In this document: piece after piece, positions 39,136 to 62,892 of the stretch
Position numbering within the stretch: the stretch's first letter is position 1
Layout of the letters: every line of letters begins with the position of its first letter
Assembly: GCA_046047235.1 (NCBI GenBank)
Contig: JBJOII010000003.1
Coordinates: 8,970-72,969 of the forward strand
Source of the DNA: Verrucomicrobiota bacterium
Lineage (GTDB): Bacteria > Verrucomicrobiota > Verrucomicrobiia > Limisphaerales > JAHDYP01
DNA: 64,000 nt
Direction of reading: 5' to 3'
Notes under the pieces: model-generated
What the model was told of the DNA's origin: nothing
Databases searched by the model: none
What the model saw: only the letters and a program-made list of their open reading frames with translations
Position numbers and translations under genes: made by a program

Positions 39136-39340
39136 CCCGACCTCATAACCAAGTTCACGAAAACAGGCAAACGGAAGTCGCGCCCACCCCCTCGCCATTT
39201 CGATCAACCCCCGGACCGGAATCGATGGGTCGATGCCCAGTGCTATTCTTGCCCCCCGCCCCGCATTCCAACTAGGCAATAAATGCCCTTTAGGGCGAAT
39301 TGAGTTCCGTAACCTGCTCATTACCAACGCTATTTGAACT

Positions 39341-39356
39341 CGGCACTCACATTGCT
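39341..39356 (+). promoter_or_regulatory. Candidate sigma-54 promoter upstream of fliO (CGGCAC-TCACA-TTGCT)
   Basis: Matches TGGCAC-N5-TTGCW at GG (-24) and GC (-12) with exact spacing, in the exeA/fliO divergent spacer. Confidence 0.45.
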
Positions 39357-39370
39357 ACTTCACTTTCCAC

Positions 39371-39865
39371 ATGTTGCACCCCACCTCGAAATGCCTTGCG
39401 GGTTGCGGATCTGGAATCTCCAGTGGCCGCTGGGTAGCGTTCCTTCTGGTAACGCTGGCTTCCTCGCCCCTGGCCTGTCTGGGTGCCGAAGCCACCGCCA
39501 CTCCGGAGCTGCCCTCGGTGGGACCCTCCGTGGTCCGTCTGCTGGGAGCCTTTGCATTGGTGATCGCCCTGCTGCTCGGCGGGCTCTGGCTCGCCCGAAA
39601 CGGCTTTCGCTTCAATGCCCGCAACCAGAAACAACGGGAACTCAAAATCCTCGAAGTGCGCATGCTGGGACAGAAACAGTCCCTCATGGTGGTGGGCTAC
39701 CAGGACCAACGCCTGCTCCTCGGTTCATCCCCCACCGGCGTCAATTTCATCACCCGGCTGCCGGACCTCACCCCGGAGGAACAACAGGCGCTGGAAACGG
39801 CCGAGGCCCCCCCCGCCCCGTCCTTCAGCCAGGCCCTCCAACACGCCCTGGGCCAACGCGCATGA
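39371..39865 (+). CDS. fliO: Flagellar export protein FliO
   Basis: TM helix LLGAFALVIALLLGGLWLA and LKILEVRMLGQKQSLMVVGYQDQRLLLGSSPTGVNFI. Its stop overlaps the fliP ATG (ATGA). A shorter form from GTG 39518, with GGAG upstream, is plausible. Confidence 0.72.
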   Translation: MLHPTSKCLAGCGSGISSGRWVAFLLVTLASSPLACLGAEATATPELPSVGPSVVRLLGAFALVIALLLGGLWLARNGFRFNARNQKQRELKILEVRMLGQKQSLMVVGYQDQRLLLGSSPTGVNFITRLPDLTPEEQQALETAEAPPAPSFSQALQHALGQRA

Positions 39866-40719
39866 ACCGCTTCTCTCGCCAACTCACCAGCAGGCTCACC
39901 GCCTGGCTCGCGACACTGCTCCTGTTGCTGCTCACCTCAAGCAGCTTCGCCCAGCAGGCGAATCTGCCCGTGGCACCCCAACCCCCCTCCGCCCCGGCAA
40001 CACTCATCCCCCCCCTCATCATCCCCCAGGCACCCCCCACCAACGCACCCCTCACTCTCAATATCGGGGTCGAAGGCCTCAAACAACCCGAACGCATCGA
40101 TTCAGCCATCCAGATCCTCCTCATCATCACTCTGCTCAGCCTCGCCCCCTCCATCATCCTGCTCACAACCTGCTTCACCCGCATCGTCATCGTCCTCTCG
40201 TTCGTCCGCCACGCACTCTCCCTCCAAGGCTCACCCGCCAACCAGATCATCGTCGGCCTGTCGCTCTTCCTCACCATGTTCATCATGGTCCCCGTCTGGG
40301 AACGCATTAACACCGAGGCCGTCCAACCTTATCGGGAACAGACGATCACCGGTCAGGACGCACTCAACCGCGCAGCCGCCCCACTACGCGAATTCATGCT
40401 GCGTCAAAGCCGGCCCAAGGATGTGGAACTGTTCGTCAGCCTCGCCCGACTCCAACCCACCGAACCCCAGGACCTCCCGCTCAAGGTCGTCATCCCAGGC
40501 TTCATCGTCAGTGAACTGCGCACAGCCTTCCAGATGGGATTCCTGCTGTTCGTGCCGTTCATCCTCGTCGACCTCGTGGTGGCCACAGTCCTCATGAGCA
40601 TGGGTATGTTCATGATGCCACCCGTCACGCTGTCACTCCCCCTGAAACTGCTGCTCTTCGTCCTCGCAGACGGATGGAACCTGGTCGTCCGCTCAGTCGT
40701 CCTAAGCTTTGGAGGCTAA
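39862..40719 (+). CDS. fliP: Flagellar export apparatus protein FliP
   Basis: Signal peptide, then conserved LLSLAPSIILLTTCFTRIVIVLSFVRHALSLQ. The track ORF from 39334 is a shadow extension across fliO. Confidence 0.92.
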   Translation: MNRFSRQLTSRLTAWLATLLLLLLTSSSFAQQANLPVAPQPPSAPATLIPPLIIPQAPPTNAPLTLNIGVEGLKQPERIDSAIQILLIITLLSLAPSIILLTTCFTRIVIVLSFVRHALSLQGSPANQIIVGLSLFLTMFIMVPVWERINTEAVQPYREQTITGQDALNRAAAPLREFMLRQSRPKDVELFVSLARLQPTEPQDLPLKVVIPGFIVSELRTAFQMGFLLFVPFILVDLVVATVLMSMGMFMMPPVTLSLPLKLLLFVLADGWNLVVRSVVLSFGG

Positions 40720-40725
40720 ACCCAC

Positions 40726-40995
40726 ATGACTCCCGAACTGGCAATCGAACTGGTCAAATCCCTCATGTTTCAGGCCGTCACGCTCGCCCTCCCCATCCTC
40801 ATCACCGCCATGGTCGTCGGCCTCAGCATCAGCATCTTTCAGTCAGTCACGTCCATCCAGGAACAAACGCTGGCCTTCGTGCCCAAAGCCCTCGGGGTCA
40901 CCGCCATCATCGTCATTCTACTGCCCTGGCTGCTTCGCACCTCACTGGACTTCACCACCACGATCATTCAACGGCTGCCGGATATGGCCCGCTAA
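40726..40995 (+). CDS. fliQ: Flagellar export apparatus protein FliQ
   Basis: 89 aa with two TM helices, in the syntenic position between fliP and fliR. Confidence 0.9.
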   Translation: MTPELAIELVKSLMFQAVTLALPILITAMVVGLSISIFQSVTSIQEQTLAFVPKALGVTAIIVILLPWLLRTSLDFTTTIIQRLPDMAR

Positions 40996-41031
40996 AGGAC
41001 CCCCGCAACAGCCCGCAAGGAACGAAACCCC

Positions 41032-41802
41032 ATGGAGCTGATTCCAGAAGAGTGGATCACCGCATGGCTCCTGGTATTCCTGCGCACCAGCGGCATGCTG
41101 ACCGTCTTCCCGCTCTTCTCCTCCCCCGTGGTCCCTCCCCGCCTGCGCGTCGCCATCGGCTTCTTCACCGCCTCGCTGCTCGCCCCGCTCATCCCCAGCC
41201 TCCCCATCCCCGAAAGCCTCTTCCACATCATCGGCCTGATGGCGCTGGAAGTGGGAGTCGGCCTCCTGCTCGGCTTCATCTGCCGCCTGGTGTTCTTCGG
41301 CCTCGAAGTCGCCGGCGGATTAATGGGCATGGAAATGGGCCTGCAAATGGCCTTCGGCGTCAACCCGGCCACCGGTAGCCAGTCCTCCGCCCCGGGCGCC
41401 GTCCTCTACTACATGGCCATCGTCCTGTGGCTCGGCCTCGATCTACACCACTGGCTGCTCGCCGCCTTCCAACGCAGCTACCTCATCCTCCCCATCGGCG
41501 CCGCACACCTCAACCAGTTCGTGCTCGCCCATGTGCTCGCCCGCACCGGCGAACTCTTCGTCATCGCCCTCCACATCACCGCCCCCATCCTCGCCGTCTC
41601 GTTCATCATCTCCCTCGTGTTCGCCATGCTCGGACGCACAGTCCCCCAGATGAACGTGTTCTCGGAAAGCTTCGCCCTCCGGATCCTCGCCGGTCTCAGT
41701 GTGTTCGGCTTCACCTGCCAGCTCATGAGCCAGCACATCATCAACTACCTCTCACGCCTGCCAGAGGATATGCTCCTCGTCGCCCGGGCCATGACCTTCT
41801 AA
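41032..41802 (+). CDS. fliR: Flagellar export apparatus protein FliR
   Basis: 256 aa polytopic membrane protein in the syntenic position. Confidence 0.9.
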   Translation: MELIPEEWITAWLLVFLRTSGMLTVFPLFSSPVVPPRLRVAIGFFTASLLAPLIPSLPIPESLFHIIGLMALEVGVGLLLGFICRLVFFGLEVAGGLMGMEMGLQMAFGVNPATGSQSSAPGAVLYYMAIVLWLGLDLHHWLLAAFQRSYLILPIGAAHLNQFVLAHVLARTGELFVIALHITAPILAVSFIISLVFAMLGRTVPQMNVFSESFALRILAGLSVFGFTCQLMSQHIINYLSRLPEDMLLVARAMTF

Positions 41803-41806
41803 TGCC

Positions 41807-42895
41807 ATGAGCCAGCACGACCAAGGGGACAAGACCGAGCAACCGACACAGCGCAAGCTGGACGATGCAGTCAAAAAGGGCCAGATCGCACGCAGCACCG
41901 AGATCCAAACGGTCTTCGTCCTCGGCGGCGGCTTCATGGCCCTGCTCATGAGCGGCCAGGAAACCTGGCGACTCTTCCATGGCGCATTCACCGGAGTCCT
42001 CGGCCACCTCCATGAACTCCCGATCTCCACCCAGGGCAGCCGCGAACAGCTCGCCAACGCCATCATCACGCTCTCCCGCTGCCTCGGCCCCGTCATCATC
42101 GCCACCCTCGTCGGCGCCCTCCTCGCCGGTAGTATCCAAACCCGCTTCCGCACTACCTCCGAAAACCTCGCCCTCAACTGGAACCGCATCAACCCCGCAG
42201 AAGGCTTCAAACGCCTCTTCTCCACCAAAGGCCTCATCACCTCCGGAGTCGCCCTCCTCAAACTCTCAGTCATCATCGCCCTCACCTACGGCGTCGTGAA
42301 GGAAACGCTCTTCGACCCCATCTTCTACTCCGCCGTCGGACTGGAAAGAATTGCCGCCTTCATGGCAAGCGCTGCCTTCCGTATCGTCATCCGCGTCCTC
42401 CTCGCCCTCTGCCTGATCGCCGTCCTCGATTACGCCTACCAACACTACAAAACCAATAAAGACCTCATGATGACTAAACAAGAGGTCAAGGATGAACATA
42501 AGAACCAGGAAGGTGACCCCCTGCTCAAAGCCCAGCAGAAGGCACGTCGCCGCCAGGCTTCATTCCGCAAAATGATGTCAGATGTCCCTCAGGCCGATGT
42601 AGTTATAACAAATCCAACCCGCCTCGCCATCGCGATCCGCTACGACCGCCGCACCATGCGCGCCCCCCAAATCATCGCCAAAGGCTCCCGCCTGAACGCC
42701 AAGAAAATCCGCGAAATCGCCAAACAACACGGCATCCCCATCGTGGAAAACAAACCCCTGGCCCGACTCATGTTCAAATACGGAAAAGTGGGTGGCGAGG
42801 TTCCTGCTCAGCTCTATGCCGCCGTGGCGGAAGTACTCGCCTGGGTCTATCGCGTGAATGCCTATCGCTATCATAAGGAAGGAGCCCTGACGTAA
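41807..42895 (+). CDS. flhB: Flagellar export switch protein FlhB
   Basis: N-terminal KTEQPTQRKL, four TM helices, and a C-terminal domain with the autocleavage site reading NPTR (42611-42622) instead of NPTH. Confidence 0.92.
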   Translation: MSQHDQGDKTEQPTQRKLDDAVKKGQIARSTEIQTVFVLGGGFMALLMSGQETWRLFHGAFTGVLGHLHELPISTQGSREQLANAIITLSRCLGPVIIATLVGALLAGSIQTRFRTTSENLALNWNRINPAEGFKRLFSTKGLITSGVALLKLSVIIALTYGVVKETLFDPIFYSAVGLERIAAFMASAAFRIVIRVLLALCLIAVLDYAYQHYKTNKDLMMTKQEVKDEHKNQEGDPLLKAQQKARRRQASFRKMMSDVPQADVVITNPTRLAIAIRYDRRTMRAPQIIAKGSRLNAKKIREIAKQHGIPIVENKPLARLMFKYGKVGGEVPAQLYAAVAEVLAWVYRVNAYRYHKEGALT

Positions 42896-42896
42896 T

Positions 42897-45005
42897 ATGC
42901 CTCCCTCCCGCTCCAGTCTCGGTCGCCTGCTGAAAAACGGCGACCTGCTGCTCACGCTCGGTATCTTTGGCACAGTCCTGCTGATGATCCTGCCGGTGCC
43001 ACCCATGTTCCTGGACGGCTTCCTCGCCACCAGCATCGCCCTCTCCCTGCTCATCCTGCTCGTCATCCTCTACGTCAAAGACCCGGCCGACTTCACCGGC
43101 TTCCCCACTCTGCTGCTCTTCGTCACGCTGTTCCGACTCTCCCTCAATATCGCCTCCACCCGACTCATCCTGCTGGATGGCTTCGCCGGCAATATCATCG
43201 AGGCCTTCGGCAATTTCGTCGTCCGCGGCAATACCATCGTCGGCATCGTCGTCTTCGCCATCCTCGTCATCATCAATTTCATCGTCATCACCAAGGGTGC
43301 AGGCCGCATCGCAGAAGTCGCAGCCCGCTTCACGCTGGATGCCATGCCCGGCAAACAAATGGCCATCGATGCCGAACTCAACGCCGGTATCATCGATGAA
43401 AAACAGGCGCGGGATCGCCGCCGCAAGGTGGAACAGGAAGCCGACTTCTACGGGGCAATGGACGGCGCCAGCAAGTTCGTCCGCGGCGACGCCGTCGCTG
43501 CCATCCTCATTACTCTCATCAATATCCTCGGCGGTTTCGGCATCGGCATCCTCCAGCGCGGCATGTCCGTGACGGAATCCCTGCAGCGCTTCACCCTGCT
43601 CTCCATCGGTGACGGCCTGGTCTCACAAATCCCCGCCCTGATCACCTCGGTGGCCGCGGGTATCCTGGTCACCCGCGCAGCCGCCAAGGATGACCTCGGC
43701 AAGGAACTCGGCAAACAGCTGCTGCTCTACCCACGCGCCATGGTGATCCTCACGATCATGATGCTCGTCTTCGCTTTCGTGCCCGGTCTCCCCAGCATGC
43801 CGTTCCTCGTGCTCGCCGGCCTCAGCTTCTTCGTCGCCCGCTCCCTCCGCCTGCACCGCGATGCAGCCCCCGAAGAAGAACCATCCTCCACCACCCAAGC
43901 CGGCAAATCAGTCAGCGCCAAAGCCGCCGCCGCCGAAGCCAAGGAAAAGAACGGCCAGTCGGAAAAACTCGAAAACCTCCTCGGCCTCGATGCCATGCAG
44001 ATCGAACTCGGCTACGGCCTGCTCGGCCTCGCCGATACCCGCAAAGGCGGGGACCTGCTCGAACGCATCACCGGTGTCCGCCGCACTTTCGCCCAGGAAA
44101 TGGGAGTCATCGTCCCCCCCATCCGACTGCGCGATAACCTCCAGCTCGGCACCACCCACTACCGCTTCATCATCAAGGGCAACGCCGTGGCCGAAGGCGA
44201 ACTCATGCCCAACCACTGGCTGGCCATGAACGCCACCAACAGCCGCGTCACTCTCAAGGGCACCCCCACCACGGAACCCGTCTTCCAGCTCCCCGCCACC
44301 TGGATCACGGAAACAGAACGCAAAAATGCCGAAATCCACGGCTACACAGTCGTCGATGCCGCTTCGGTCATGGTCACGCACCTCTCAGAAACGGTCCGAC
44401 GTCACTGCCACGAAATCCTCAGCCGCCAGGACGTCCAGGTGCTCCTCGATAATCTCAAGGAAACCCACTCCACCGTGGTCACTGAACTCATCCCCGGCCA
44501 ACTCACGGTCGGCCACGTCCAACGCATCCTCCAAAACCTCCTCGCCGAAGGTATCTCCATCCGCAACCTCGCCGGTATCCTCGAAAAAGTCGGCGACCAC
44601 GCCTCCATCACCAAAAACCCCGACGAACTCTCCGAACACGCCCGCAAAGCCCTCGGCGCACAATTGGTCAAACCCTTCCAAGGTGATGACGGTATCGTAA
44701 AAGCCATCACGCTCGAACCCACCCTCGAACAACAGCTCGCCCAAGGCATCCGCCAAACGCAATCCGAACTCTCCCTGGTCATGGAACCCGGCCTCGCCCG
44801 TCACCTCATGGAAAACCTCTCCAAACGCGTGCAGGAACTCCTCTCCGGCGGCCACCCACCCCTCGTGCTCTGCGCCCCGCAACTCCGCCTCGCGTTCCGC
44901 CGCTTCTTCGAATCCACCTTCGCCGACCTCAATGTGCTGGCCTACAACGAAATCCCCGCACGCGTGCAGATCCAGTCCAGCGCCACTATCCCCGCAACCC
45001 GATAA
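42897..45005 (+). CDS. flhA: Flagellar export gate protein FlhA
   Basis: 702 aa with an N-terminal polytopic domain and a large cytoplasmic domain, in the syntenic position. Confidence 0.95.
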   Translation: MPPSRSSLGRLLKNGDLLLTLGIFGTVLLMILPVPPMFLDGFLATSIALSLLILLVILYVKDPADFTGFPTLLLFVTLFRLSLNIASTRLILLDGFAGNIIEAFGNFVVRGNTIVGIVVFAILVIINFIVITKGAGRIAEVAARFTLDAMPGKQMAIDAELNAGIIDEKQARDRRRKVEQEADFYGAMDGASKFVRGDAVAAILITLINILGGFGIGILQRGMSVTESLQRFTLLSIGDGLVSQIPALITSVAAGILVTRAAAKDDLGKELGKQLLLYPRAMVILTIMMLVFAFVPGLPSMPFLVLAGLSFFVARSLRLHRDAAPEEEPSSTTQAGKSVSAKAAAAEAKEKNGQSEKLENLLGLDAMQIELGYGLLGLADTRKGGDLLERITGVRRTFAQEMGVIVPPIRLRDNLQLGTTHYRFIIKGNAVAEGELMPNHWLAMNATNSRVTLKGTPTTEPVFQLPATWITETERKNAEIHGYTVVDAASVMVTHLSETVRRHCHEILSRQDVQVLLDNLKETHSTVVTELIPGQLTVGHVQRILQNLLAEGISIRNLAGILEKVGDHASITKNPDELSEHARKALGAQLVKPFQGDDGIVKAITLEPTLEQQLAQGIRQTQSELSLVMEPGLARHLMENLSKRVQELLSGGHPPLVLCAPQLRLAFRRFFESTFADLNVLAYNEIPARVQIQSSATIPATR

Positions 45006-51705: not shown

Positions 51706-51843
51706 CCTTACCGCTTACCCCTTACCGCTTACCCCTTACCGCTTACCCCTTACCGCTTGCCCTCCGCCCTCAGCCCTCAGCGCTCTGCGCTCTGCGCTTT
51801 CCGCTTTCCGCTTGCCGCTTACCGCTCTGCGCTCTGCGCTCAG
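51701..51843 (+). repeat. Phased heptamer tract of 20 units drifting through related 7-mers
   Basis: (TTACCCC TTACCGC)x4, TTGCCCT, CCGCCCT, CAGCCCT, CAGCGCT, CTGCGCT x2, TTCCGCT x2, TGCCGCT, TACCGCT, CTGCGCT x2. The tract ends on the phnY stop codon (51840-51842). Confidence 0.9.
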
Positions 51844-53285
51844 GGCCACGGCAACGAATACGTCTTCACGTTCGTGAAGAATTTCATGGCCTCACTCACG
51901 CCCTCTTTCACTCCGTTGCCAGAATCCTTGATGCCTCCGAACGGCGACGTCTCGATCCGGTAACCCGGCTGTTCCCAGATGTTCACGGTCCCCACACGCA
52001 ACCCTTCAATGAACGCCTGCATCCGGCGGAAATCATTCGTGCAGACTCCCGACGACAAACCGAACGGCGTGCTATTGGAAATGCGCATGACTTCCTCGTC
52101 GTTGTCCGGCACACGCACGATGGGAACGATCGGCCCGAAAGTCTCCTCCATGACCAGTTCACTTTGATGCGGCACGAAGTCGACCACGATCGGCGGCAGC
52201 AGGGCGCCCTTGCGACCCGGATCATAGAGGACCTTGGCCCCCTGCTCTGCGGCCAGATAGACCCGCTTCTCGAACAACTCCGCCGCCCTGGCATGAATGA
52301 CACAACCCAGCTCAGTCGCCGGATCCATCGGATCCCCAAACCGGATCGCCTTCGCCTTGGTCAGCACGAGCGGAACGAATCGATCCGCCACGCTTTCCTG
52401 TACCAGAATGCGCTTCACCGCAGTGCATCGCTGACCCGAATTCCCCGTTGCACCCGCCACCGCAATGGTCGCCGCCTTCTCCAGGTCCGCATCGTCCAGA
52501 TCGTTCAGGATGATCAGGGGATCGTTGCCTCCCAGCTCCAAGGCCTGCCGCTTGTACACCGCCTTCGACGCAATCATCTTCCCCACCGGCACACCACCCG
52601 TGAAGGTGATGATGTCGATGTTGGGATTGGTGATCATTTCATCGCCAATGTCCTTCGGCCAACCGGTAACAACTTGGAACATCTCCGGAGGCAGACCGGC
52701 TTCATACAGGAGATCCGCCAGTGAAAGGGCCGTCAACGGAGTCAGCTCGGTCGGCTTGCACACCATGCAGTTGTTGGTGGCAATCGATGGCGCCACCTTG
52801 TGACTCACCATGTTCAACGGATGGTTGAACGGGGTGATGGCTGAGATGGCCCGCACCGGTTCGCGCTTGGTGTAAATCTTCCGCTGCTTCCCGTTGTGCG
52901 TCAGGTCGCAGGAAAAAATCTGGCCGTCGTCCTGCAGCGTCTGCGCCGCAGCAAAGGTATACACATCCTGCGCCCGCTTGGTCTCGTAAATGGCATGCTG
53001 CCAGCAAATGCCCAGTTCCAAGACCAGCCACTTGGCCAGAAACTCGCGACGCTCCCCGATCAGCTCACCCGTGCGCTTCAGGATCCGGCTGCGCTCGTAA
53101 CGCGTCAGCTTCGACTCATACGCCGCCGCTATCTCAAACGCACGACGCGCATGCTCCGCCGTCCCCGCCGGAACGGTCCCCACAACCTCGTCGGTATACG
53201 GATACCGCACCTCAATCCGTTCCCCGGTAAAGACCTTCTCCCCACCAATCCGCATCCCTTCGTTCCGGATCTCAATACGACTCAT
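51840..53285 (-). CDS. phnY: Aldehyde dehydrogenase, probably phosphonoacetaldehyde dehydrogenase
   Basis: ALDH catalytic motifs ELGGNDP and GQRCTAV. A GAGGAG Shine-Dalgarno lies upstream. The gene sits directly downstream of a PhnA-type hydrolase. Confidence 0.8.
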
Positions 53286-53300
53286 AGCTGCTCCTCGATA

Positions 53301-54545
53301 TCAAAGCGCCGCCGCGCGCGTGGCATAAAAGAACCCGTCAAAGTTCCGCAACTCCGGAGCATTCGGCACCTCCAACACGCGGTTCACTATAAACGGCACC
53401 TCCTGCTCGGTCAGCCCGCCATGGCTGCGCAACGGCTCCTTCAACGCCGCCAAGTCATGCCGGTGCTCCGACGTCCCCAACGTCATGTTCTCACCCGAGA
53501 TGATCACCACATCCCCAATCCGGTCCGCCGGCAACTCATAGCGCCTCACGGCCTCCGCCCGGTCCACCACGTCAATAATCTCCGGGACCGCCCTTAGCCG
53601 CTCCATGATCGCCCCACAATCCGACCCCGCCGGCAAATACGCCGTCGCAAACGAACCCAGCGCACCGTGATGCACCACATACGGATCGGTGATCGGCAGG
53701 ATCACCCGCGCCTTCGCCTCCCCCAGCCACTCGTCAAACAGGTCCTGCAAATAAATCACCCGCGGCCCACCCCGCTCATCATGCTTCGGCTTCATCCCGT
53801 GATCCGCCGTCACCACAATCGCCGCCCCCAAGGCATCCAACTCAGCCAAATACCGGTCGAACATCGCATAAAAATCCTTCGCCCCCTGCTCCACCGGCGA
53901 AAACTTGTGCTGAATGTAATCGGTCGTCGATAAATACATCACGTCCGGCTTCCACTCGCGCGCCAGCTTTACCCCGGCCGCAAATACAAACTCAGACAAC
54001 CCCGCAGAATACACCTCAGGCACCGCCATCCCCAACCACTCGTCCGCCCTGTCAATGCCGTTGGCCGCCTTCGTCGCCTGATCCGACCGCTCCGACGAAA
54101 AGCAAATCGCCCGATCCTCCCCAAACTCCAAACCCGCCCCCAACAACGCCCGAAGCTTGTCCTTCGCTGTCACGACGGCCACACGCGCCCCCGCCCGATA
54201 AAACTGGCTGAACACGGTCGGCGCCCGCAGGAACCGCACGTCGTTCATCATCACTTCCTCCCCGGTCTCCGGCTCAAACAGATAGTTGCCACAAATCCCG
54301 TGCACCACCGGCGGCCGCCCCGTCGCAATCGACAGATTGTTCGGATTGGTAAATGAAGGAATCACCGAGTGCGCCCGCCGGTCCGTGCCCGTTTCCCGAA
54401 TGCGTTTCAGGGTCGGCATCAAACCCTCCGCAATCGCCACATCGAGATACTCCGGTTCACAGCCATCCAGACAAATCACAATGGCGCAGGTCTTGGGTCC
54501 AGGATAGGTGCGACCGTTTGCCGTCACCTCAGATGGAATGGTCAT
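53301..54545 (-). CDS. phnA: Phosphonoacetate hydrolase (alkaline-phosphatase superfamily)
   Basis: VICLDGCEPEYL, IPSFTNPNNLSIATG, VHGICGN and TADHGM, as I recall them from PhnA. ATG at 54545 (MTIPSE) is preferred to GTG at 54578. Confidence 0.8.
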   Translation of the reverse strand: MTIPSEVTANGRTYPGPKTCAIVICLDGCEPEYLDVAIAEGLMPTLKRIRETGTDRRAHSVIPSFTNPNNLSIATGRPPVVHGICGNYLFEPETGEEVMMNDVRFLRAPTVFSQFYRAGARVAVVTAKDKLRALLGAGLEFGEDRAICFSSERSDQATKAANGIDRADEWLGMAVPEVYSAGLSEFVFAAGVKLAREWKPDVMYLSTTDYIQHKFSPVEQGAKDFYAMFDRYLAELDALGAAIVVTADHGMKPKHDERGGPRVIYLQDLFDEWLGEAKARVILPITDPYVVHHGALGSFATAYLPAGSDCGAIMERLRAVPEIIDVVDRAEAVRRYELPADRIGDVVIISGENMTLGTSEHRHDLAALKEPLRSHGGLTEQEVPFIVNRVLEVPNAPELRNFDGFFYATRAAAL

Positions 54546-54934
54546 GTCGTTAAAAAAGTCGGTTAAACCAGAAGCCACCGACCGTAGTGATCCGCGCTGT
54601 CCCGCTCAAGGACAAAGCCCCCCCGACCCAGGCGAGACCGCGCCCGGGCATGGTTCGAAGAATACCCACCCGTCGTCTCCATCCAGGTTATCCAGAAGTT
54701 CACTGCCAGCGCCCTGCGTAAACCCACACCGGGAATCCATGAGCACAAGAATACGCCATAAACCACCTCCCGTGCTCTGCCCGAAGACAGAGGCCAACCC
54801 CCTGTTCATCACTTCCAGTTCCCGCCAAACCCCGATCTGGCGAATCCGTCAGATCAGCCTGATCTACACCATGCGCCAATCGAGCTGCAACACCCGAAGA
54901 ACAGTGCCAGCGTGTGGGCCTTCACAGCCCCACC

Positions 54935-55714
54935 CTACGGCTTGATCTTCTGGAACAACGCGGTCAGCCGGGTGCGATACATCTCCACGATCTCACCCTG
55001 CACATCACCCAGCGGCTTGACCGGGACAAGGTCCATAACCTCCGCAGATGCGAGCCCGGATTCCAGCAGCGTGCGCGTCGCGCCGCAAAGGGTTCGCTTC
55101 AGTGCAGGCACAACCTCCTCCTCCGTTAAGCCAAACCCGGCCGCCAGCTCGCGCAGCACCTGCATCTGAAACCAGAAATAGGTCGGCCCCATGCCGCTCA
55201 AAAGCGCGTAGCCCTCAAGCTTGGTCTCGTCCACTTCGGGGTGCTCCCCCAACGGAGCAAACAACGACACCACCTCGTCACGGTCGCCAGCAGGAAGCGA
55301 TGACGAAAAAGCCATGGGATTGTAGCCGGCACCAATCAGGGAGGGCGCGTTCGGAATGATGCGCACGATTCGATCGAACCCGCCAAGCATCGATGACAGC
55401 TTCGCAAACGTAAACTTGGGGGCCAGCGAGACCATTACGGCGTTCGCTTTGAGCACCGGCCGGATCTGCGTCAACACCTCGGGAATCACCGGAGGATGCA
55501 CCGCCAGTATGACCAGTTCCCGGGTGGCCGCCTCAAGGTTGTCAGCGGGAGAGATCGCAAGCTTCGGAAACCTCTCCCTGAGCCCCGCCAATGCGTCCGG
55601 ACCCGGATCACTCACCACGATGCCCCGGGGCATCTGCCCGGCATGCTGAAGTCCTTGCAAGAGGATGCGCACTACGCGTCCTCCGCCAATAAAACCAATG
55701 GTTCGGTGGGTCAT
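54935..55714 (-). CDS. proC: Pyrroline-5-carboxylate reductase
   Basis: N-terminal IGFIGGGRV Rossmann fold and a P5CR-type C-terminal dimerisation region. 259 aa. Confidence 0.85.
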   Translation of the reverse strand: MTHRTIGFIGGGRVVRILLQGLQHAGQMPRGIVVSDPGPDALAGLRERFPKLAISPADNLEAATRELVILAVHPPVIPEVLTQIRPVLKANAVMVSLAPKFTFAKLSSMLGGFDRIVRIIPNAPSLIGAGYNPMAFSSSLPAGDRDEVVSLFAPLGEHPEVDETKLEGYALLSGMGPTYFWFQMQVLRELAAGFGLTEEEVVPALKRTLCGATRTLLESGLASAEVMDLVPVKPLGDVQGEIVEMYRTRLTALFQKIKP

Positions 55715-55845: not shown

Positions 55846-57627
55846 TCAGCCGTCGAACGTCTCCAACAGCTGCTCCAGCTGCTCAGGACCAACCGGCTCC
55901 TTCCTCGTCCACGGGATCAGGACGCATCGACTCGAGAGGGTGTCAGCGACTTCCCGGATGAACGGGATCTCGTTCCTCCCCCGCGCCATAAGAACCGGAT
56001 CGCTGCTGGAACAACGGGAGAAACTCTGGTTCACCACCCAGGCCCAAGGCTCGATCCCAGCCCGCCGAAGATCCTCCTGCAACGCCGCCGCTTCATGCAC
56101 CGGTGTAGGCTCCGGCAAGGTCACCACCAGAATACGCGTAAACCCGGGATCACGCAGCCTCGGCAACAGCTCCCGCACTTCCTCCGGCAGATCGCTGGTG
56201 TTGCGCGAAACCTCGCGATGATACGCCTCAGTAGCATCCAGCAACAACAAGGTGTGGCCCGTGGGCGCAGTGTCCAGCACCACAAATCCGTCCCTGCCTC
56301 CAGCCACCATCCGCGCAAAGGCCCGGAACACCGCCACCTCCTCCGTGCACGGTGAACGAAGGTCCTCTTCCAGCAGCGCGCGACCCTGAACATCCAGACC
56401 GGCTCCCGCCGTAGCCATCACTTGCTCCACATAAGCCCGGGTCTCAACCGCTGGATCAATGCGGCTCACCTCCAAACCGGGTATGGAATCCCCCGCCACC
56501 GCCGCCACATGGGCCGCAGGATCGGTCGTGCTGAGATGTACCTTCGCACCCCGTCGCGCCAGCGCCATCGCAATCGCGGCCGCCACAGTGGTCTTGCCCA
56601 CACCCCCCTTGCCCATCGTCATCACCACGCCACGACCCACCCCCAATAGATCATCCACTAGGGCCGACAAGGCCCCAATTGCCGGGATGCCGTTGCCGTC
56701 CTCCACCATAAGGGACTCCGTCGCTTCCGCGGCCACAGACGCAAGCCGACGCAAGGCCGGGATGCCCACCAGGTTATGGGCCTGAAGCGGCACCTGCACC
56801 GACGGCAGCGCCGCCAGCTCCGCCGACATGCCCCCCAAAGCACCGCGCCCACGCTCCTCCAAGGCCGTCGCGTATGCATCGCGCCTGTCACTGGCACGGA
56901 AGATCCCGTTGATCAGCAGTCTCTGGTTCTGCATCCCCAGCGCAGCCAACTCCCCACGCGTCCGATCCGCTTCACGTAAGGCCGCCGGCTGGGGACGACT
57001 CACCAGAAACAACGTTGCCCGGCGCGCATCAGCCAAGGCCGCCACCGACCCCTCATACAACCGCCGTTGGGCCTGTAAACCCGACAGCGGTCCGAGGCAC
57101 GAGGTGCCAGTCGTGTTCGTCTGCATGAAACCCGTCCACGCAGCCGGTAGCTTCAACAGCCGCAGCGTATGACCCGTCGGCGCAGTATCGAAAACCACAT
57201 GGTCATACTCCCGGGTGAGCCCCGGATCTCCCAGCAACAAGGTGAACTCATCAAAGGCCGCAATCTCCAAGGTGCACGCCCCCGAGAGCTGCTCCTCCAT
57301 GCTCCGAACCGCCGCATCCGGCAACACCCCGCGATACGGCCCCACCAAACGCTCACGATACGCCGCCGCCGCCGCCTGCGGATCAATGTTCAGGGCCGAC
57401 AATCCAGTCACCCCCGCAATCGGTGTCGGCTGCCCGGACAGGCTTTCACCCAGCACCTCGTCCAGGTTCGACGCAGGATCGGTACTCACCAGCAAGACCC
57501 GTCGACCCGCATCCGCCAACGCCACCGCCGTCGCACAAGCCAACGATGTCTTCCCCACACCCCCCTTCCCGGTAAAAAACAGGTAAGGCGTCGGCAACCT
57601 CAGGATCTCAGCAAGCGGTCCAGTCAT
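55846..57627 (-). CDS. arsA: Arsenite-stimulated ATPase ArsA (two homologous halves)
   Basis: Two P-loops (GKGGVGKTS, GKGGVGKTT), DTAPTGHTL twice, and Cys residues in positions expected for the metalloid site (SGACTLE, GTSCLGP, SPCTEE). Confidence 0.92.
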   Translation of the reverse strand: MTGPLAEILRLPTPYLFFTGKGGVGKTSLACATAVALADAGRRVLLVSTDPASNLDEVLGESLSGQPTPIAGVTGLSALNIDPQAAAAAYRERLVGPYRGVLPDAAVRSMEEQLSGACTLEIAAFDEFTLLLGDPGLTREYDHVVFDTAPTGHTLRLLKLPAAWTGFMQTNTTGTSCLGPLSGLQAQRRLYEGSVAALADARRATLFLVSRPQPAALREADRTRGELAALGMQNQRLLINGIFRASDRRDAYATALEERGRGALGGMSAELAALPSVQVPLQAHNLVGIPALRRLASVAAEATESLMVEDGNGIPAIGALSALVDDLLGVGRGVVMTMGKGGVGKTTVAAAIAMALARRGAKVHLSTTDPAAHVAAVAGDSIPGLEVSRIDPAVETRAYVEQVMATAGAGLDVQGRALLEEDLRSPCTEEVAVFRAFARMVAGGRDGFVVLDTAPTGHTLLLLDATEAYHREVSRNTSDLPEEVRELLPRLRDPGFTRILVVTLPEPTPVHEAAALQEDLRRAGIEPWAWVVNQSFSRCSSSDPVLMARGRNEIPFIREVADTLSSRCVLIPWTRKEPVGPEQLEQLLETFDG

Positions 57628-57630
57628 GGC

Positions 57631-58926
57631 TTAGCAGCATCCGGAATCAGGTGAACAGCAACAACCGCCCCCCGCGTTGCGGGTAGGATCCGGACGCAAC
57701 AACAACGGGTCAAACGCCGGAAGTTCAGGCAGCTTGACCCCCGCCCAGCGCGCCATCTCCCTCCGGCCCGGATAACTCCCCACACTCGCCACCGCCCCAT
57801 CCACCAGCACCAGCGGCAGACAATCGGTTCCCTGCTCAGCCAACGTCGCCTTCACGATGTCACTCCCCGCGAATGCCGCCGGTGCCTGCGCCAGATTGTA
57901 GCGCTCAACCACAACACCCTGCGATTTCAGCCAATCCAGATCCGCCGCAAATTGCACCAGCTTCGGGTCCACATTGGGTCCGCACACGCCCGTCGAACAA
58001 CACATGGCCGGGTCGTAGACCTCCAGCCTGACCGGAGACTTGGCCGCTCCTGTAGCGGACTCACCCACGCTCCCGGTATCCGCTTTGCGTGCCGTGATCT
58101 CCAGGCTGGTGATGTAATCGGCCGGCCCCGTGCCTTCAGGTAACTCCGCCGCAATCTGCCGATAAACGGGATCCCGCCAGTCCACCATCCCCTCTACATA
58201 GCCGGTTCTCCGCGTCAGTACGATATCCACCAACCCGGCCTCTCTCGCCATGCGCTCACTCTCGGAAACCAGCACCGCACCGGCAATACAACCAATCCGG
58301 GCCTCCACCATCCCCAGCACCTCCGCCGGCAATGACCTCAGCAGCGCCAGATCCGAAACCGCAACCCGCCCCCCAGGCTTCAATACCCGCGCCACCTCCC
58401 GCCACACCTGCGCCTTGTCCGGCGACAGGTTGATCACACAATTCGAAATCACCACGTCCACCGATCCATCCGCCACCGGCAAATGCTCAATCTCACCCAA
58501 CCTAAACTCCACATTGTCCAAACCGGAATGCTCCCGGTAAACGGTAATGTTCCTCCTCGCCTTCGCCAGCATGTCCGGAGTCATGTCGACCCCAATCACC
58601 CGCCCCTCAGCCCCCACCTTCCGCCCGGCTATAAACACGTCAAACCCACCGCCACTGCCCAGATCCAGCACCACCTCCCCGGGGCGAAGCGCCGCCAGCG
58701 CATTGGGGTTGCCGCACGAAAGCCCCATATTCGCACCCTCAGGCAAGACAGACAGCTCCTCTAGGGAGTAGCCCACATGCCGCGCCAGCGTCTCCGGATC
58801 ACAGCCCCCCCCGTCACAACACCCCCCACCTCCGCTCCGCCGATCGCTGCCCCCGTTCGCAACCTGACTGTACCCCGTGCGCACCATCTCGCGCACAGCT
58901 TCAGAATCCAACTTGGACGTGGTCAT
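57631..58926 (-). CDS. arsM-arsD: Fusion protein: ArsM As(III) S-adenosylmethionine methyltransferase (N-terminal) plus ArsD metallochaperone (C-terminal)
   Basis: ArsM part has VLDLGSGGG and conserved Cys residues in GGCCDGGGC, LSCGNP, SNCVINL and GCIAGA. ArsD part has VYDPAMCCSTGVCGP, LPLVLVDG and a Cys-rich tail GGGCCCSPDSGCC. Confidence 0.85.
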   Translation of the reverse strand: MTTSKLDSEAVREMVRTGYSQVANGGSDRRSGGGGCCDGGGCDPETLARHVGYSLEELSVLPEGANMGLSCGNPNALAALRPGEVVLDLGSGGGFDVFIAGRKVGAEGRVIGVDMTPDMLAKARRNITVYREHSGLDNVEFRLGEIEHLPVADGSVDVVISNCVINLSPDKAQVWREVARVLKPGGRVAVSDLALLRSLPAEVLGMVEARIGCIAGAVLVSESERMAREAGLVDIVLTRRTGYVEGMVDWRDPVYRQIAAELPEGTGPADYITSLEITARKADTGSVGESATGAAKSPVRLEVYDPAMCCSTGVCGPNVDPKLVQFAADLDWLKSQGVVVERYNLAQAPAAFAGSDIVKATLAEQGTDCLPLVLVDGAVASVGSYPGRREMARWAGVKLPELPAFDPLLLRPDPTRNAGGGCCCSPDSGCC

Positions 58927-58938
58927 GGGTCTTCCTTT

Positions 58939-59367
58939 CTATGGGGCCCTCAACAGGACGTCTGGCAGGGTTTCAATGAACCGACGGATCTCGTCCCGCA
59001 CCCGGCGATACACCGCCAGCTTCTCCTCCCCGTCAGGCAGCTCCTTCGTCAACTTCGGCGGATCCTCAAACCCGTGATGCACCACCTTGGCCTTGCCAGG
59101 AAAAACCGGACAATGCTCGTTCGCATGGCCACATACGGTCACCACATAGTCAAACTCCACCGCACCCATGTCTTCCAAGGTCTTGGAATACTGTTGGCCT
59201 ATCGCCACACCCGCTTCAGCCATGACCTTCATGGCATGCGGATTCATGCCGTGCTTCTCAATCCCGGCCGAATACGGCTCGATCTCATCACTCTTCAGAT
59301 GACGGGCCCAGCCCTCAGCCATCTGGCTGCGGCACGAGTTCCCGGTGCATAAAAACAGCACCTTCAT
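58939..59367 (-). CDS. arsC: Arsenate reductase (LMW-PTPase / thioredoxin-coupled type)
   Basis: KVLFLCTGNSCRSQMAEG P-loop. ATG at 59367 overlaps the arsR stop (ATGA at 59364-59367). Confidence 0.9.
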   Translation of the reverse strand: MKVLFLCTGNSCRSQMAEGWARHLKSDEIEPYSAGIEKHGMNPHAMKVMAEAGVAIGQQYSKTLEDMGAVEFDYVVTVCGHANEHCPVFPGKAKVVHHGFEDPPKLTKELPDGEEKLAVYRRVRDEIRRFIETLPDVLLRAP

Positions 59368-59729
59368 TTTGTGCATTGTTTGCGACATAAATCAGCAGGG
59401 TTGCATTTCAAAACTTGCTTCAGACGCTTCCGGTCTCCAGCTACACGCGCGTCCTTCGCCAAAGACCGCTCCACCCAGTCCAAGGCCTCGCGCACCGCCG
59501 GCGCCGCCTCGCCATCCGGCAACGCGTAATACACCCAGCGCCCCTCCTTGCGGCAGCTCACCAGCCCCGCCTGCTTCAACAGGTAGAAATGCTTGGACAT
59601 CGTGGACTGCGCGAGACCAAACAGCTCCGTAATCTGACACGCGCATAACTCCCGCTCCCGCAACGCCAGCAACACCCGGATCCGGGTCGAATCCGCCAGT
59701 GCCTTGGTGATGTTCATGAACTCGCGCAT
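59364..59729 (-). CDS. arsR: ArsR/SmtB-family metalloregulator
   Basis: HTH with ELCACQITELF (CxC metalloid site) and a Cys-containing C-terminal tail. The ATG is at 59729, or at 59717. Confidence 0.85.
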   Translation of the reverse strand: MREFMNITKALADSTRIRVLLALRERELCACQITELFGLAQSTMSKHFYLLKQAGLVSCRKEGRWVYYALPDGEAAPAVREALDWVERSLAKDARVAGDRKRLKQVLKCNPADLCRKQCTK

Positions 59730-59740
59730 CGCAGTCTTAT

Positions 59741-59760
59741 ATTTCGTCGTTTGGCGAAAT
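59741..59760. promoter_or_regulatory. Candidate ArsR operator (ATTTCG-N8-CGAAAT)
   Basis: 6-bp inverted repeat (7 of 8 if extended) lying 12-31 nt upstream of the arsR ATG, in the divergent spacer. Confidence 0.35.
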
Positions 59761-59861
59761 GTAAAATGGATGCAAGACTCGGCCATGTCAAGCAACACCG
59801 CCACATCACCCGCCGCGCTTCGAGAGTGACGACACGACCCCGCCACGCTAGTCTGCCCCTC

Positions 59862-60941
59862 ATGTCCCCCTCCAAGTGGTGTCGAAACAAAACGGCGCTC
59901 GCGTCGCTCGGACTTCTGCTAAGCCTCCCGCTGCCTGCCGCCCCCACCCCCACCCCCGCCTGGCAGGGCGTCCACCTCATGGCCCCCGGCGCCTCCGGCA
60001 TGCCCCTCCTGGAAAAGGCCGTCTCCGGCCCGCTCTCAAACCTCGGAGTCAATGTCGTCATCCTAGAAATCGGATACGGCTACGCCTTCACCTCCCACCC
60101 CGAACTCGCCCGGCCCGGCGGCATCACCCGGGAACAGGCCCGGTCGCTGGCCAAAGCCTGCAACGACAAAGGCATCCGGCTCATCCCCCTCTTCAACTGC
60201 CTCGGACACCAGTCCTGGGCCAAAACCACCCACCCACTCCTCACCCAATACCCCGAGTTCGACGAAACACCCGATATCCCCACGGACAATCCCGACATCT
60301 ACTGCCGCAGCTGGTGCCCCCTGCATCCCAAGGTCAACAACGTCGTCTTCGCACTGCTGGACGAACTGATCGAAGCGTTCAATGCCGACGCACTCCATGT
60401 CGGCATGGACGAGGTCTTCCTCATCGGTCATGACCAATGCGAACGCTGCCGGGGCAAAGATCCGGCCGATCTGTTCGCACGCGCCGTCCATGACCTGCAC
60501 CAACATCTCGTAGGAACCAAAGGCGTGGAGATGCTGCTCTGGGGAGACCGCCTCATCGATGACAACGTCATGCGCTATGGCGAATGGGAGGCTAGCCGAA
60601 ACGGCACCGCAGCCGCAGTCGACAAAATCCCCAAGGATATCGTCATCTGTGACTGGCACTACGAGAAACGGGAAAGCTACCCCTCCATTCCGTTCTTCCT
60701 GGACAAAGGATTCCGCTGCTGGCCATCCAGTTGGCGCAACAAGGAAGCCGCCCTCGCCCTGCAGGCACACGCACGCGAACAAAACCATCCCCGCATGCTC
60801 GGTCACCTCTGCACCACCTGGAGCGGATCAGAAAGCCTCGCCAAAGTGCTCCTGCAGGAAGCTGACGATAACAACCGCTACCACCAGGCCCGCCAGCTCG
60901 CCGACGTGCTAAACGCCTGCTTCGGCACTGCGGAACGCTGA
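59862..60941 (+). CDS. Secreted TIM-barrel glycoside hydrolase, GH20-like
   Basis: ATG at 59862 gives a signal peptide. IPLFNCLGHQSW and HVGMDEVF resemble the GH20 PGH and HxGxDE motifs. The family assignment is tentative. Confidence 0.55.
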   Translation: MSPSKWCRNKTALASLGLLLSLPLPAAPTPTPAWQGVHLMAPGASGMPLLEKAVSGPLSNLGVNVVILEIGYGYAFTSHPELARPGGITREQARSLAKACNDKGIRLIPLFNCLGHQSWAKTTHPLLTQYPEFDETPDIPTDNPDIYCRSWCPLHPKVNNVVFALLDELIEAFNADALHVGMDEVFLIGHDQCERCRGKDPADLFARAVHDLHQHLVGTKGVEMLLWGDRLIDDNVMRYGEWEASRNGTAAAVDKIPKDIVICDWHYEKRESYPSIPFFLDKGFRCWPSSWRNKEAALALQAHAREQNHPRMLGHLCTTWSGSESLAKVLLQEADDNNRYHQARQLADVLNACFGTAER

Positions 60942-61249: not shown

Positions 61250-62656
61250 TCAAAACATCACGTCCGCTGAACAATAGGCGTACGCCGTGTCGCCACGTTC
61301 AATAGCGCTCGGCACATTCCGGATGAACTCGCCGGCAAACAAGTAGGCACCCCCCACCTCCAGGCCCACGTTGCCAGGAAGCACTGACCAGCGCAGCCGC
61401 GCCTCCAGTTGATGGCCCACAAACGACCCTGAATTCCCCGAGGGATCACGCAAACCACTGGTCGTCCATGCATCCCGTTTGGAAGCAAGCCAGTAGGGCC
61501 GGTAACTCACCATGGCGTCCAACGGCTTCGTCGGCCGGGCGCTAAAACGCACGCCCGGCGACTGAATGTTGGATCGGGCAAACGCCCCGTAAATTCCCGT
61601 CGGCCCATGCTCAAACCGTCGCGCACCGAAAAGCGTATCAAACCGGTTGTTGCGCGAATCCGTCGGGTCGTCGTCTCCACTGGCATAATCGTAGAGCAAA
61701 GCAACGCGCGGAGCCCAGGCTGCCCCCAGGGTGTAACCCAGCTCCGCATGCCCGAAATACGCCAGATGATCCAAATCCCGCGATGTAACGCTGTTGCGCA
61801 GGTTCCCCGCCTGCAACACCGCCTCCATATCAAAATCCCATCGTTCCCTGCCCGGCTTACGCAACAACCTCACACCCGGCGTGTAATAGTTGCGCTTCAG
61901 TAAAGGCAAACCCGCCGAGTTATCCTCATGCAGCCCGAAGACATAAGCCTCCCCGGTGCTCCCCGCAACCAGCCCCGGCAACTCCGCATGCAGACCCCAG
62001 AATCGGTAATCAAAGTTCTCGTGATCGATCTCAATATCGTTGTCCAGCAAGGACACCGGATCCCGTGGCATCCTCCTGACGGGAAGTACGTAAAAAGCGC
62101 GAAAGACAGGACCCTCCCGTAGCCGCCACTCATAATCCAAACCCGTGAAGGCGTTGATCGTGTTGCGAAACCTGTTCCGCGCAACCAGCCTTCGACTTCC
62201 CACATCCATGGTCTGACGCCCAAACCGAAATTCACTGCTGCTCTCCCCCACAAAAGGCCCCTCCAACCGAAGCGACCCGTAGACTTGAAGCGGCTCCAGC
62301 GCGTTGACAATCGTCGTGTTAATGGGCGTACCCAAATCAGCCAGCTCCTGACGAGAGTCCACCATCTCCCCCACCACACTGACCCGCTCAGCCTTCGCTT
62401 CCATCCTCAGCGTGGTGCGGAACGCCAACACCTGATCCCCCCCGGATCGCAACGCCCTAAACTGCCCATCCAACGTCTCATACCGCGCACGGTGCGTGCC
62501 ACTCACATCCAGCCACCCCGGCAAGCCCACGGCATCAGATAACCGCCAGGGACCCGCCTCGTTCGTGCCGGCTGCCGATAGATGGCCCGGCATATGACCA
62601 CCACCAATCAGCAAGGTGCAGAATAACAGAAAGCTGATACGCATCGCTGTGTTCAT
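61250..62656 (-). CDS. Alginate-export-type outer-membrane beta-barrel porin
   Basis: ATG at 62656 gives signal peptide MNTAMRISFLLFCTLLIGG. The N-terminal WLDVSGTHRARYE region is as I recall for the alginate_exp family, and the C-terminal residue is aromatic (F). The upstream track extension contains a repeat module. Confidence 0.75.
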   Translation of the reverse strand: MNTAMRISFLLFCTLLIGGGHMPGHLSAAGTNEAGPWRLSDAVGLPGWLDVSGTHRARYETLDGQFRALRSGGDQVLAFRTTLRMEAKAERVSVVGEMVDSRQELADLGTPINTTIVNALEPLQVYGSLRLEGPFVGESSSEFRFGRQTMDVGSRRLVARNRFRNTINAFTGLDYEWRLREGPVFRAFYVLPVRRMPRDPVSLLDNDIEIDHENFDYRFWGLHAELPGLVAGSTGEAYVFGLHEDNSAGLPLLKRNYYTPGVRLLRKPGRERWDFDMEAVLQAGNLRNSVTSRDLDHLAYFGHAELGYTLGAAWAPRVALLYDYASGDDDPTDSRNNRFDTLFGARRFEHGPTGIYGAFARSNIQSPGVRFSARPTKPLDAMVSYRPYWLASKRDAWTTSGLRDPSGNSGSFVGHQLEARLRWSVLPGNVGLEVGGAYLFAGEFIRNVPSAIERGDTAYAYCSADVMF

Positions 62657-62754
62657 ATCACGACAGGACAAACCCCAATGCCAACAGCTAATTGCAAACC
62701 ACCCGGTATCCCATCTCCCATCTACCTCCGCCCTCGGCGCTCTGCCCCCCACCG

Positions 62755-62805
62755 TCTCCCCTCTCCTCTCTACCCTCTTCCTGCATCGCGGACGCCCGCG
62801 ATGCA
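62755..62805 (+). repeat. Polypyrimidine tract plus hairpin module (TGCATCGCGG-acgc-CCGCGATGCA)
   Basis: TCTCCCCTCTCCTCTCTACCCTCTTCC followed by a perfect 10-bp stem, in the porin/secreted-protein divergent spacer. Confidence 0.85.
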
Positions 62806-62892
62806 AGGGGAATTAAGACTTGATCATTCTTAAAGTTAGAACGCATGGTGCAACGCTAAGGTGGCTAATGCGTTCTCGGTCACGGGTGTATC

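Follow-up and report, generated by a model that had tools for sequence, protein, structure and literature searches.

An arsM::arsD fusion gene in a Verrucomicrobiota ars operon encodes a predicted As(III) methyltransferase joined to a predicted ArsD chaperone

How does arsenite, As(III), reach the enzyme that methylates it? Glutathione conjugates are the favoured As(III) donors to the methyltransferase ArsM in vitro, and the pump-driving ATPase ArsA is the only client so far known for the metallochaperone ArsD. A 64-kb stretch of Verrucomicrobiota DNA, which we call the window, carries a gene, arsM::arsD, that encodes ArsM and ArsD as a single polypeptide. Such a natural fusion offers a direct experimental handle on the supply of As(III) to ArsM, and hints at a second client for ArsD. 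We find that arsM::arsD is a genuine, conserved fusion whose two domains are each complete. The reading we favour, with a probability of about 0.55, is that of a bifunctional protein in which ArsD keeps its role towards ArsA and the fusion co-localises the methylation and efflux branches.

The gene is one uninterrupted open reading frame (ORF) that begins with ATG and has no internal stop codons in translation, and a Shine-Dalgarno-like sequence, AAAGGAAG, lies immediately 5´ of the start. A preliminary description of the locus had reported a single ORF of 431 amino acids (aa) without stating its strand; the ORF is as described and lies on the minus strand, and every motif quoted there can be located in the translated protein. 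The ArsM domain (aa 1-282) is followed by a linker (aa 283-299), the ArsD domain (aa 300-400) and a Cys-rich tail (aa 401-431). Since the window derives from a metagenome-assembled genome (MAG), an assembly or sequencing error might have erased the stop codon of an arsM gene that was distinct from arsD, but we regard the chance of this as negligible. The protein matches NCBI MFM1941255.1 at 100% identity, an entry that comes from a Verrucomicrobiota MAG and is annotated only as "ArsD"; a second NCBI contig encodes the identical 431-aa protein, and orthologues at 87% and 79% identity keep the junction. In a collection of 5.8 billion proteins, the top 120 matches were clusters at 90% identity drawn from NCBI, JGI, ENA and Logan assemblies; at least 120 such clusters from independent assemblies have the same ArsM-ArsD architecture with the same in-frame junction. 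Domain architecture gave the same answer, with PF13847 and PF06953 co-occurring in all 120 best matches, and the named organisms among these were almost all Verrucomicrobiota, Limisphaerales or Verrucomicrobiia. The junction itself keeps neither a start codon nor a ribosome-binding spacer, and the linker changes among homologues only by in-frame substitutions and indels. Because the identical copy, the two orthologues and the independent clusters all share the junction, which recurs in several MAGs, an artefact is excluded for practical purposes.

The first domain has the features of a complete ArsM, as had been claimed for it. On the NCBIfam arsenite methyltransferase profile NF008823 it scores 299.5 bits, above the cut-off of 263, with aa 7-282 covering profile positions 3-268 of 272, and it matches Pfam Methyltransf_31 with E 1.6e-34 (aa 81-207). 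The class I S-adenosylmethionine (SAM)-binding motif (D/E-x-G-x-G-x-G) reads VLDLGSGGG at aa 86-94, and its L89, G90, G92 and G94 are invariant in an alignment of 116 fused homologues from which we took column conservation and a length profile for each region. Cysteines are found in GGCCDGGGC (C36, C37 and C42), LSCGNP (C71), SNCVINL (C163) and GCIAGA (C213). The domain can be aligned with CrArsM (5evj) and CmArsM (4fr0), placing C37, C71, C163 and C213 on the four conserved ArsM cysteines, C44, C72, C174 and C224 in CmArsM numbering. C37 pairs with the Cys of SACTAA in CrArsM, and C213 falls within GC(I/L)AGA. None of the fused homologues departs from C71, C163 or C213, and at least 90% of them keep C37. 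In an AlphaFold2 model the predicted local distance difference test (pLDDT) score is 85-98 over aa 44-281 and below 50 in the N-terminal Cys loop (aa 29-40). The top 11 Foldseek matches in the PDB are all ArsM structures (E about 5e-18), and no PDB chain covering both the ArsM and the ArsD domain was found. With its SAM motif and the four putative catalytic or As-binding cysteines, the domain is predicted to be an As(III) methyltransferase. The full-length profile match, SAM motif, four cysteines and fold are those of the prokaryotic short ArsMs (NF008823; 4fr0, 5evj), to which the window protein adds a C-terminal ArsD domain.

The ArsD domain is likewise complete as judged from its matches. 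It scores 124.2 bits against the NCBIfam chaperon_ArsD profile NF033727 (cut-off 90; aa 300-395) and 147.4 bits against Pfam ArsD PF06953 (E 3e-43, cut-off 27; aa 300-431, profile positions 3-123 of 123), and aligns with residues 4-104 of R773 ArsD (3mwh; E 4e-31) at 52% identity across 101 positions. The As(III)-binding MCCSTGVCGP triad named in the preliminary description, C309/C310/C315, falls column for column on Cys12-Cys13-Cys18 of R773 ArsD. All 116 fused homologues have C309 and C310, and at least 90% have C315. The model gives the domain a pLDDT of 84-96 and beta-alpha-beta secondary structure, and we predict it to be an As(III) chaperone. Between them, the two domains retain all the residues that such proteins are known to require. 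Like the ArsD of the E. coli R773 plasmid (PDB 3mwh, 3kgk), it combines the MCCSTGVCG motif with a Cys-rich C-terminus and is encoded directly upstream of arsA. R773 ArsD is a free protein of ~120 aa, whereas the window ArsD forms the C-terminal part of a 431-aa protein that begins with ArsM, a difference that concerns architecture and leaves family membership unaffected.

The linker, earlier put at ~15 aa, measures ~17 aa; column conservation is 0.26-0.35 at aa 281-300 against 0.75-0.99 across both domains, linker length ranges from 4 to 26 aa across the 116 homologues, and pLDDT falls below 50 at aa 287-295. The Cys-rich tail is present as described, with C422-424 and C430-431 in its ending, GGGCCCSPDSGCC, and much of it also has a pLDDT below 50. 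The whole-protein model, built from the 116-sequence alignment, has a mean pLDDT of 83.6 and a predicted template modelling (pTM) score of 0.65. Because this pTM is about the share of the chain taken up by the ArsM domain, no fixed interdomain geometry is predicted, and the model suggests two confident domains on a flexible, disordered tether with no fixed ArsM/ArsD interface.

The gene that follows bears directly on what the ArsD domain does. arsA begins 3 nt past the fusion, as had been noted (TGC TGC TAA GCC ATG, with the arsA ATG at 57627). Its product can be aligned end to end with R773 ArsA (1f48) and with 9nbl, and has two P-loops together with C118, C177 and C427 in the motifs SGACT, TSCLGP and SPCTEE; these cysteines presumably correspond to the R773 metalloid-site residues C113, C172 and C422. 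arsA lies directly downstream of the fusion in 8 of 9 informative fused contexts (the window, L001/L086, L002, L081, where arsA is frameshifted, L082, L083, L084/L085 and L096), and arsA is also the next gene after arsD in 61 of the 65 informative metagenome loci whose arsD is standalone. Because the fused loci follow the same rule as standalone arsD, the ArsD domain is probably still serving ArsA.

In the model we favour, ArsC would reduce arsenate to As(III), which the ArsD domain would capture on C309/C310/C315 and pass by thiol exchange to C118/C177/C427 of ArsA, as in the canonical R773 system. ArsA would power a membrane pump, whose gene, acr3, is adjacent in relatives and here would be encoded elsewhere or lost. 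The tethered ArsM would methylate As(III) at C163/C213, aided by C37/C71, and the fusion would mainly fix 1:1 expression and co-localise the methylation and efflux branches. Some direct hand-off of As(III) to ArsM is likely to be possible as well, because an As(III)-loaded ArsD site would sit on a ~17-residue tether beside the ArsM site; such a transfer from ArsD to ArsM is plausible.

Several observations weigh against this reading. The L088 locus has a fusion with no arsA within 1.2 kb downstream, so the ArsD domain is not always accompanied by ArsA. Recurrent, apparently independent fusion, described below, argues for more than neutral co-expression convenience. Neither arsB nor acr3 is present in the 64-kb window, where multi-transmembrane proteins are limited to a ClC channel and the flagellar export components, and the syntenic L086 locus likewise has neither gene; the ArsA-pump branch is thus incomplete locally. 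The window, which shows only part of the genome, therefore lacks the pump gene that a canonical arsRDABC-type cluster contains, and in the window clade ArsA either works with a pump whose gene lies elsewhere or has a different partner. Purifying selection on the locus, a point in favour of the bifunctional reading, is estimated from the window and its 79%-identical orthologue in L086, a comparison in which the synonymous substitution rate (dS) is near saturation at 0.75-1.6, so that the ratios of non-synonymous to synonymous rates (dN/dS) are only approximate. These ratios are 0.18 for ArsM, 0.065 for ArsD, 0.03 for the tail (within the window clade), 0.10 for arsC and 0.12 for arsA, and the linker has a dN of 0.71. 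ArsM, ArsD, the tail and arsA are thus under purifying selection despite the loss of acr3 and of a further module considered below. Pseudogenisation of this pump-less clade was considered and rejected, given dN/dS values of 0.03-0.18.

Taken on their own, some of these observations would fit intramolecular chaperoning, in which the tethered ArsM is the main client of ArsD, loading with As(III) or an As(III)-thiol lowers the effective Michaelis constant (Km), and service to ArsA is secondary or absent. We consider this possible, though doubtful. The fusion at L088 has no arsA nearby, and in the window clade strong purifying selection keeps the fusion intact although the locus has no acr3. The tether and the Cys-rich tail are predicted to be flexible enough to reach the ArsM site, if the geometry is as we suppose. 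Against it, arsA directly follows the fusion in nearly all informative contexts, and the 3-nt spacer seen here is the classic arsD-arsA arrangement; the AlphaFold model shows no defined ArsM/ArsD interface; the linker is unconserved in sequence and length; and no report of ArsD-to-ArsM transfer was found in the literature searched.

How often the fusion occurs, and how often it arose, bears on the same question. A scan of species-representative genomes, seeded on ArsM peptides, gives a background from its best 80 ArsM loci and no estimate of prevalence: only L001 and L002 are fused, 77 of the 80 are standalone, and L008 has the genes in split form. In Verrucomicrobiota and Planctomycetota most of the close ArsM relatives are thus standalone, unlike the window protein, which counts against ArsM as the main client of ArsD. 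A metagenome scan used a junction-spanning query and again yields no prevalence estimate; among the matches listed there are 3 clear fusions in 80 ArsD loci, mostly standalone arsD, and short or left-truncated contigs may be misclassed as standalone. The fusion is therefore a minority state among the ArsM and ArsD loci listed. An exhaustive HMMER search of 1.84 billion representatives at 50% identity, in which the window family collapses to the single representative P0059, revealed further full-length or partial fusions (P0130, P0134, P0138, P0143, P0145, P0177 and P0180). By ArsM-domain similarity the distant fusions fall into about four groups, the nearest neighbours of each being unfused ArsMs, and by ArsD-domain similarity they are interleaved with standalone ArsDs. 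Judged from nearest-neighbour identities rather than from a supported or reconciled phylogeny, operon-mates seem to have fused (or split) more than once.

The recurrence in about four ArsM lineages, with the closest relatives of both domains unfused, is a point in favour of ArsM as the client, and the order of the domains is always ArsM then ArsD. The fusion also occurs within larger proteins: at L096 (4891-6780) a 630-aa protein of four modules, GNAT (ArsN-like)-ArsM-ArsD-CMD/AhpD, is followed by arsA and acr3. We entertain, tentatively, a broader version in which ArsD is not a dedicated ArsA chaperone but a built-in As(III) delivery arm for ArsM, or a switch partitioning As(III) between methylation and efflux, a coupling that would have been selected several times independently and would have stayed intact in a clade without pump and module.

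Side products of these searches include other ArsM-family architectures (P0126, P0131, P0150, P0154, P0187, P0205 and P0163), among them tandem pairs of ArsM-like methyltransferases, CMD-methyltransferase-methyltransferase, ArsM-CMD, and an 832-aa methyltransferase-methyltransferase-FGE-sulfatase-domain protein. The fusion at L088 (3701-5759) is itself unusual in being without the Cys-rich tail; the next gene there encodes a 227-aa protein with no Pfam match that ends in GGCGPSAGAGCCPK, and is followed by a gene for a DsbD-like membrane protein.

One distant fusion lineage raises a different possibility. At L084 (5921-10088) and L085 (P0145) the gene order is arsR-MIP aquaglyceroporin-arsM::arsD-arsA, and neither Acr3 nor ArsB is encoded within 7 kb. 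MIP aquaglyceroporin channels conduct methylated arsenicals, and a pairing of arsM::arsD-arsA with such a channel in place of Acr3 would suit a protein in which ArsD takes toxic trivalent methylarsenic, MAs(III), from ArsM and relays it to an export route, protecting the producer. The vicinal Cys pairs of the triad and the tail could conceivably hold two-coordinate MAs(III). The ArsD triad, however, is a three-coordinate As(III) site. ArsP and ArsK are known MAs(III) exporters, and neither was seen beside the fusion at any locus examined. We consider product hand-off a minor rival, and an improbable one. The L084/L085 locus belongs to a metal-resistance island that also encodes MerT, P-type ATPases and transporters of the CDF and ZIP types.

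The close relatives of the window protein bring in a third partner. A CMD/AhpD-like module of ~60 aa with a CxPC motif (CQPCFK or CEPCLK) sits between ArsD and the Cys-rich ending in 78 of the 116 fused homologues, and is absent from the window protein and from P0002 and P0003, the two proteins closest to it. The Verrucomicrobiota ArsM-ArsD-AhpD proteins (for example P0005, P0021 and P0070; ~490-510 aa) are 60-74% identical to the window protein, and share with it the operon head arsR-arsC-fusion-arsA and the Cys-rich ending. They differ in having the CxPC module, and acr3 after arsA, neither of which is present in the window, P0002 or P0003. In the alignment a CCCS..SGCC ending is common to the window clade and its module-bearing sisters. 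In a neighbour-joining tree built on the ArsM and ArsD alignment columns, the window clade (the window protein, P0002 and P0003) is sister to a clade of 21 proteins, 19 of them with the module, and deeper sister groups are mostly module-bearing. Given this position and the shared tail ending, a secondary internal deletion is the most economical reading, by which the window protein would derive from a three-module ArsM-ArsD-AhpD ancestor through loss of the AhpD-like CxPC module.

The frequency of this module directly after ArsD could point to a redox role, in which the thioredoxin-fold ArsD or the Cys-rich tail re-reduces the catalytic disulfide of ArsM and carries no arsenic. The ArsM/AhpD selenoprotein fusions of NCBIfam NF041537 show that a redox partner is a recurring ArsM theme, and thioredoxin and DsbD genes are present in related clusters. 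Like the window protein, NF041537 and other ArsM fusions indicate that ArsM is often joined to small thiol or redox partners. Yet the argument concerns the AhpD module and not ArsD, and that CxPC module has been lost from the window protein. The ArsD of this protein has no CxxC redox motif, and shares its triad and 52% of its residues with a bona fide As(III) chaperone. The redox idea thus suits the relatives' AhpD-like module better than ArsD, and as an account of the fusion it is a minor rival that we think very unlikely. Membership of the window protein in NF041537 itself was rejected, as the match scores 155.5 bits against a cut-off of 510 and is limited to the ArsM part (aa 4-244); the protein has no AhpD domain (no CMD match in Pfam) and no selenocysteine.

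The gene order of relatives shows what a more complete locus looks like. acr3 is present at L081, L082, L083 and L096. L082 and L083 have the order arsR-arsC-fusion-arsA-acr3. L081 has it too, with a frameshift in arsA and with additional genes of the thioredoxin, DsbD and MerB-like kinds. Among relatives with known gene context, L086 (P0003) is the closest, and its synteny to the window extends over arsA, a gene for a pyrroline-5-carboxylate-reductase (P5CR)-like protein, phnA, phnY and a CAP-domain gene. A natural split control exists at L008, from a Verrucomicrobiae MAG, where the order is arsR-arsM-arsC-arsD-arsA...acr3 and all are separate genes. The gene set is that of the window, and the L008 ArsM and ArsD are 67-68% and 62% identical to the window domains; arsM (285 aa) and arsD (123 aa) are separate there, with arsC between them, whereas the window has one fused gene. 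This split version, together with the variants with or without the AhpD module, extends the natural experiment.

In the extended ars cluster of L081, a gene at 12676-13854 encodes a 392-aa protein with thioredoxin and MerB (organomercurial lyase-like) parts, and has as its neighbours genes for Thioredoxin_3 and DsbD_TM proteins and for a second methyltransferase.

Gene fusions among ars genes have been reviewed before, namely ArsR-ArsC, Acr3-ArsC, AqpS-ArsC, ArsN-ArsC and ArsN-ArsD (PMC6205960), and these, like ArsM-ArsD, join consecutive arsenic-handling steps in one polypeptide. The ArsM-ArsD combination is absent from two reviews of ars gene diversity (PMC6205960, PMC6514093), and was not found in full-text literature searches, which reach few subscription-journal papers, so that an earlier mention is possible. 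The preliminary description had allowed that the fusion might prove both common and already characterised: it is indeed common in Verrucomicrobiota and present in databases, and a published characterisation was not found. Databases hold hundreds of fusion sequences, named only "ArsD" or only "methyltransferase". Because such names cover half the protein, gene-centric surveys of arsenic methylation potential may miscount the fusions, a family common in Verrucomicrobiota of soils and freshwaters. This is a widespread architecture built from two textbook domains and not a new kind of system.

Table 1. Coordinates and assignments of the fusion gene, its regions and the neighbouring operon genes in the window.
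Feature	Coordinates	Strand	Details
arsM::arsD fusion gene	57631..58926	minus	single ORF, 431 aa plus stop; both domains above curated cut-offs
ArsM domain	58081..58926	minus	aa 1-282; SAM motif 86-94; Cys37, Cys71, Cys163, Cys213
Interdomain linker	58030..58080	minus	aa 283-299, ~17 aa
ArsD domain	57727..58029	minus	aa 300-400; predicted As(III)-binding triad Cys309/Cys310/Cys315
C-terminal tail	57634..57726	minus	aa 401-431, ends GGGCCCSPDSGCC; insertion place of the AhpD-like CxPC module in relatives
arsR (ArsR/SmtB metalloregulator), first operon gene	59364..59729	minus	Pfam HTH_5; NCBIfam NF033788, 89.8 bits
arsC, thioredoxin-coupled (low-molecular-weight protein tyrosine phosphatase type) arsenate reductase	58939..59388	minus	Pfam LMWPc; TIGR02691, 148 bits; subtype inferred
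arsA, arsenical pump-driving ATPase	55846..57627	minus	TIGR04291, 785 bits; starts 3 nt past the fusion stop codon
P5CR-like NAD(P) oxidoreductase, possible last cluster gene, membership uncertain	54935..55714	minus	Pfam F420_oxidored

The operon reads arsR-arsC-arsM::arsD-arsA on the minus strand, followed by the P5CR-like gene (Table 1). The mechanical ORF of arsR extends to 59846; because orthologues are 121 aa, Met40 at 59729 is the likely start. The ArsR protein contains a CxC motif, ELCACQ, and arsR and arsC overlap by 25 nt, likewise in relatives. The subtype of ArsC is an inferred one, because the 148 bits against TIGR02691 fall below the equivalog cut-off of 174.

The P5CR-like protein scores 107 bits against the proC profile TIGR00112, below the cut-off of 197, and its gene has a dN/dS of 0.19 between the window and L086. 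Homologues of this 259-aa protein are encoded in the same place in L086 (4097-4876) and inside the extended ars cluster of L081 (13877-14656). Lying beside or inside ars clusters at three Verrucomicrobiota loci, it may be an ars-associated reductase.

Just downstream of the ars genes, at 51840-54578 on the minus strand, PhnY (phosphonoacetaldehyde dehydrogenase; TIGR03250, 758 bits) adjoins PhnA (phosphonoacetate hydrolase; TIGR02335, 497 bits). The two make up a module for the degradation of 2-aminoethylphosphonate, and the pair is syntenic in L086. On the arsR side, the flanking genes encode a GH20-like glycosidase (59751-60941, plus strand) and an outer-membrane porin of the alginate-export family (61250-62806, minus strand). 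Farther away, a flagellar export block (39334-45005, plus strand) includes FliP, together with FliR, FlhB and FlhA assigned from size and position only. The mechanical ORF of FliP is 461 aa, with the FliP domain confined to aa 264-454; its start is probably internal, or fliO/fliN-like sequence has been merged with it.

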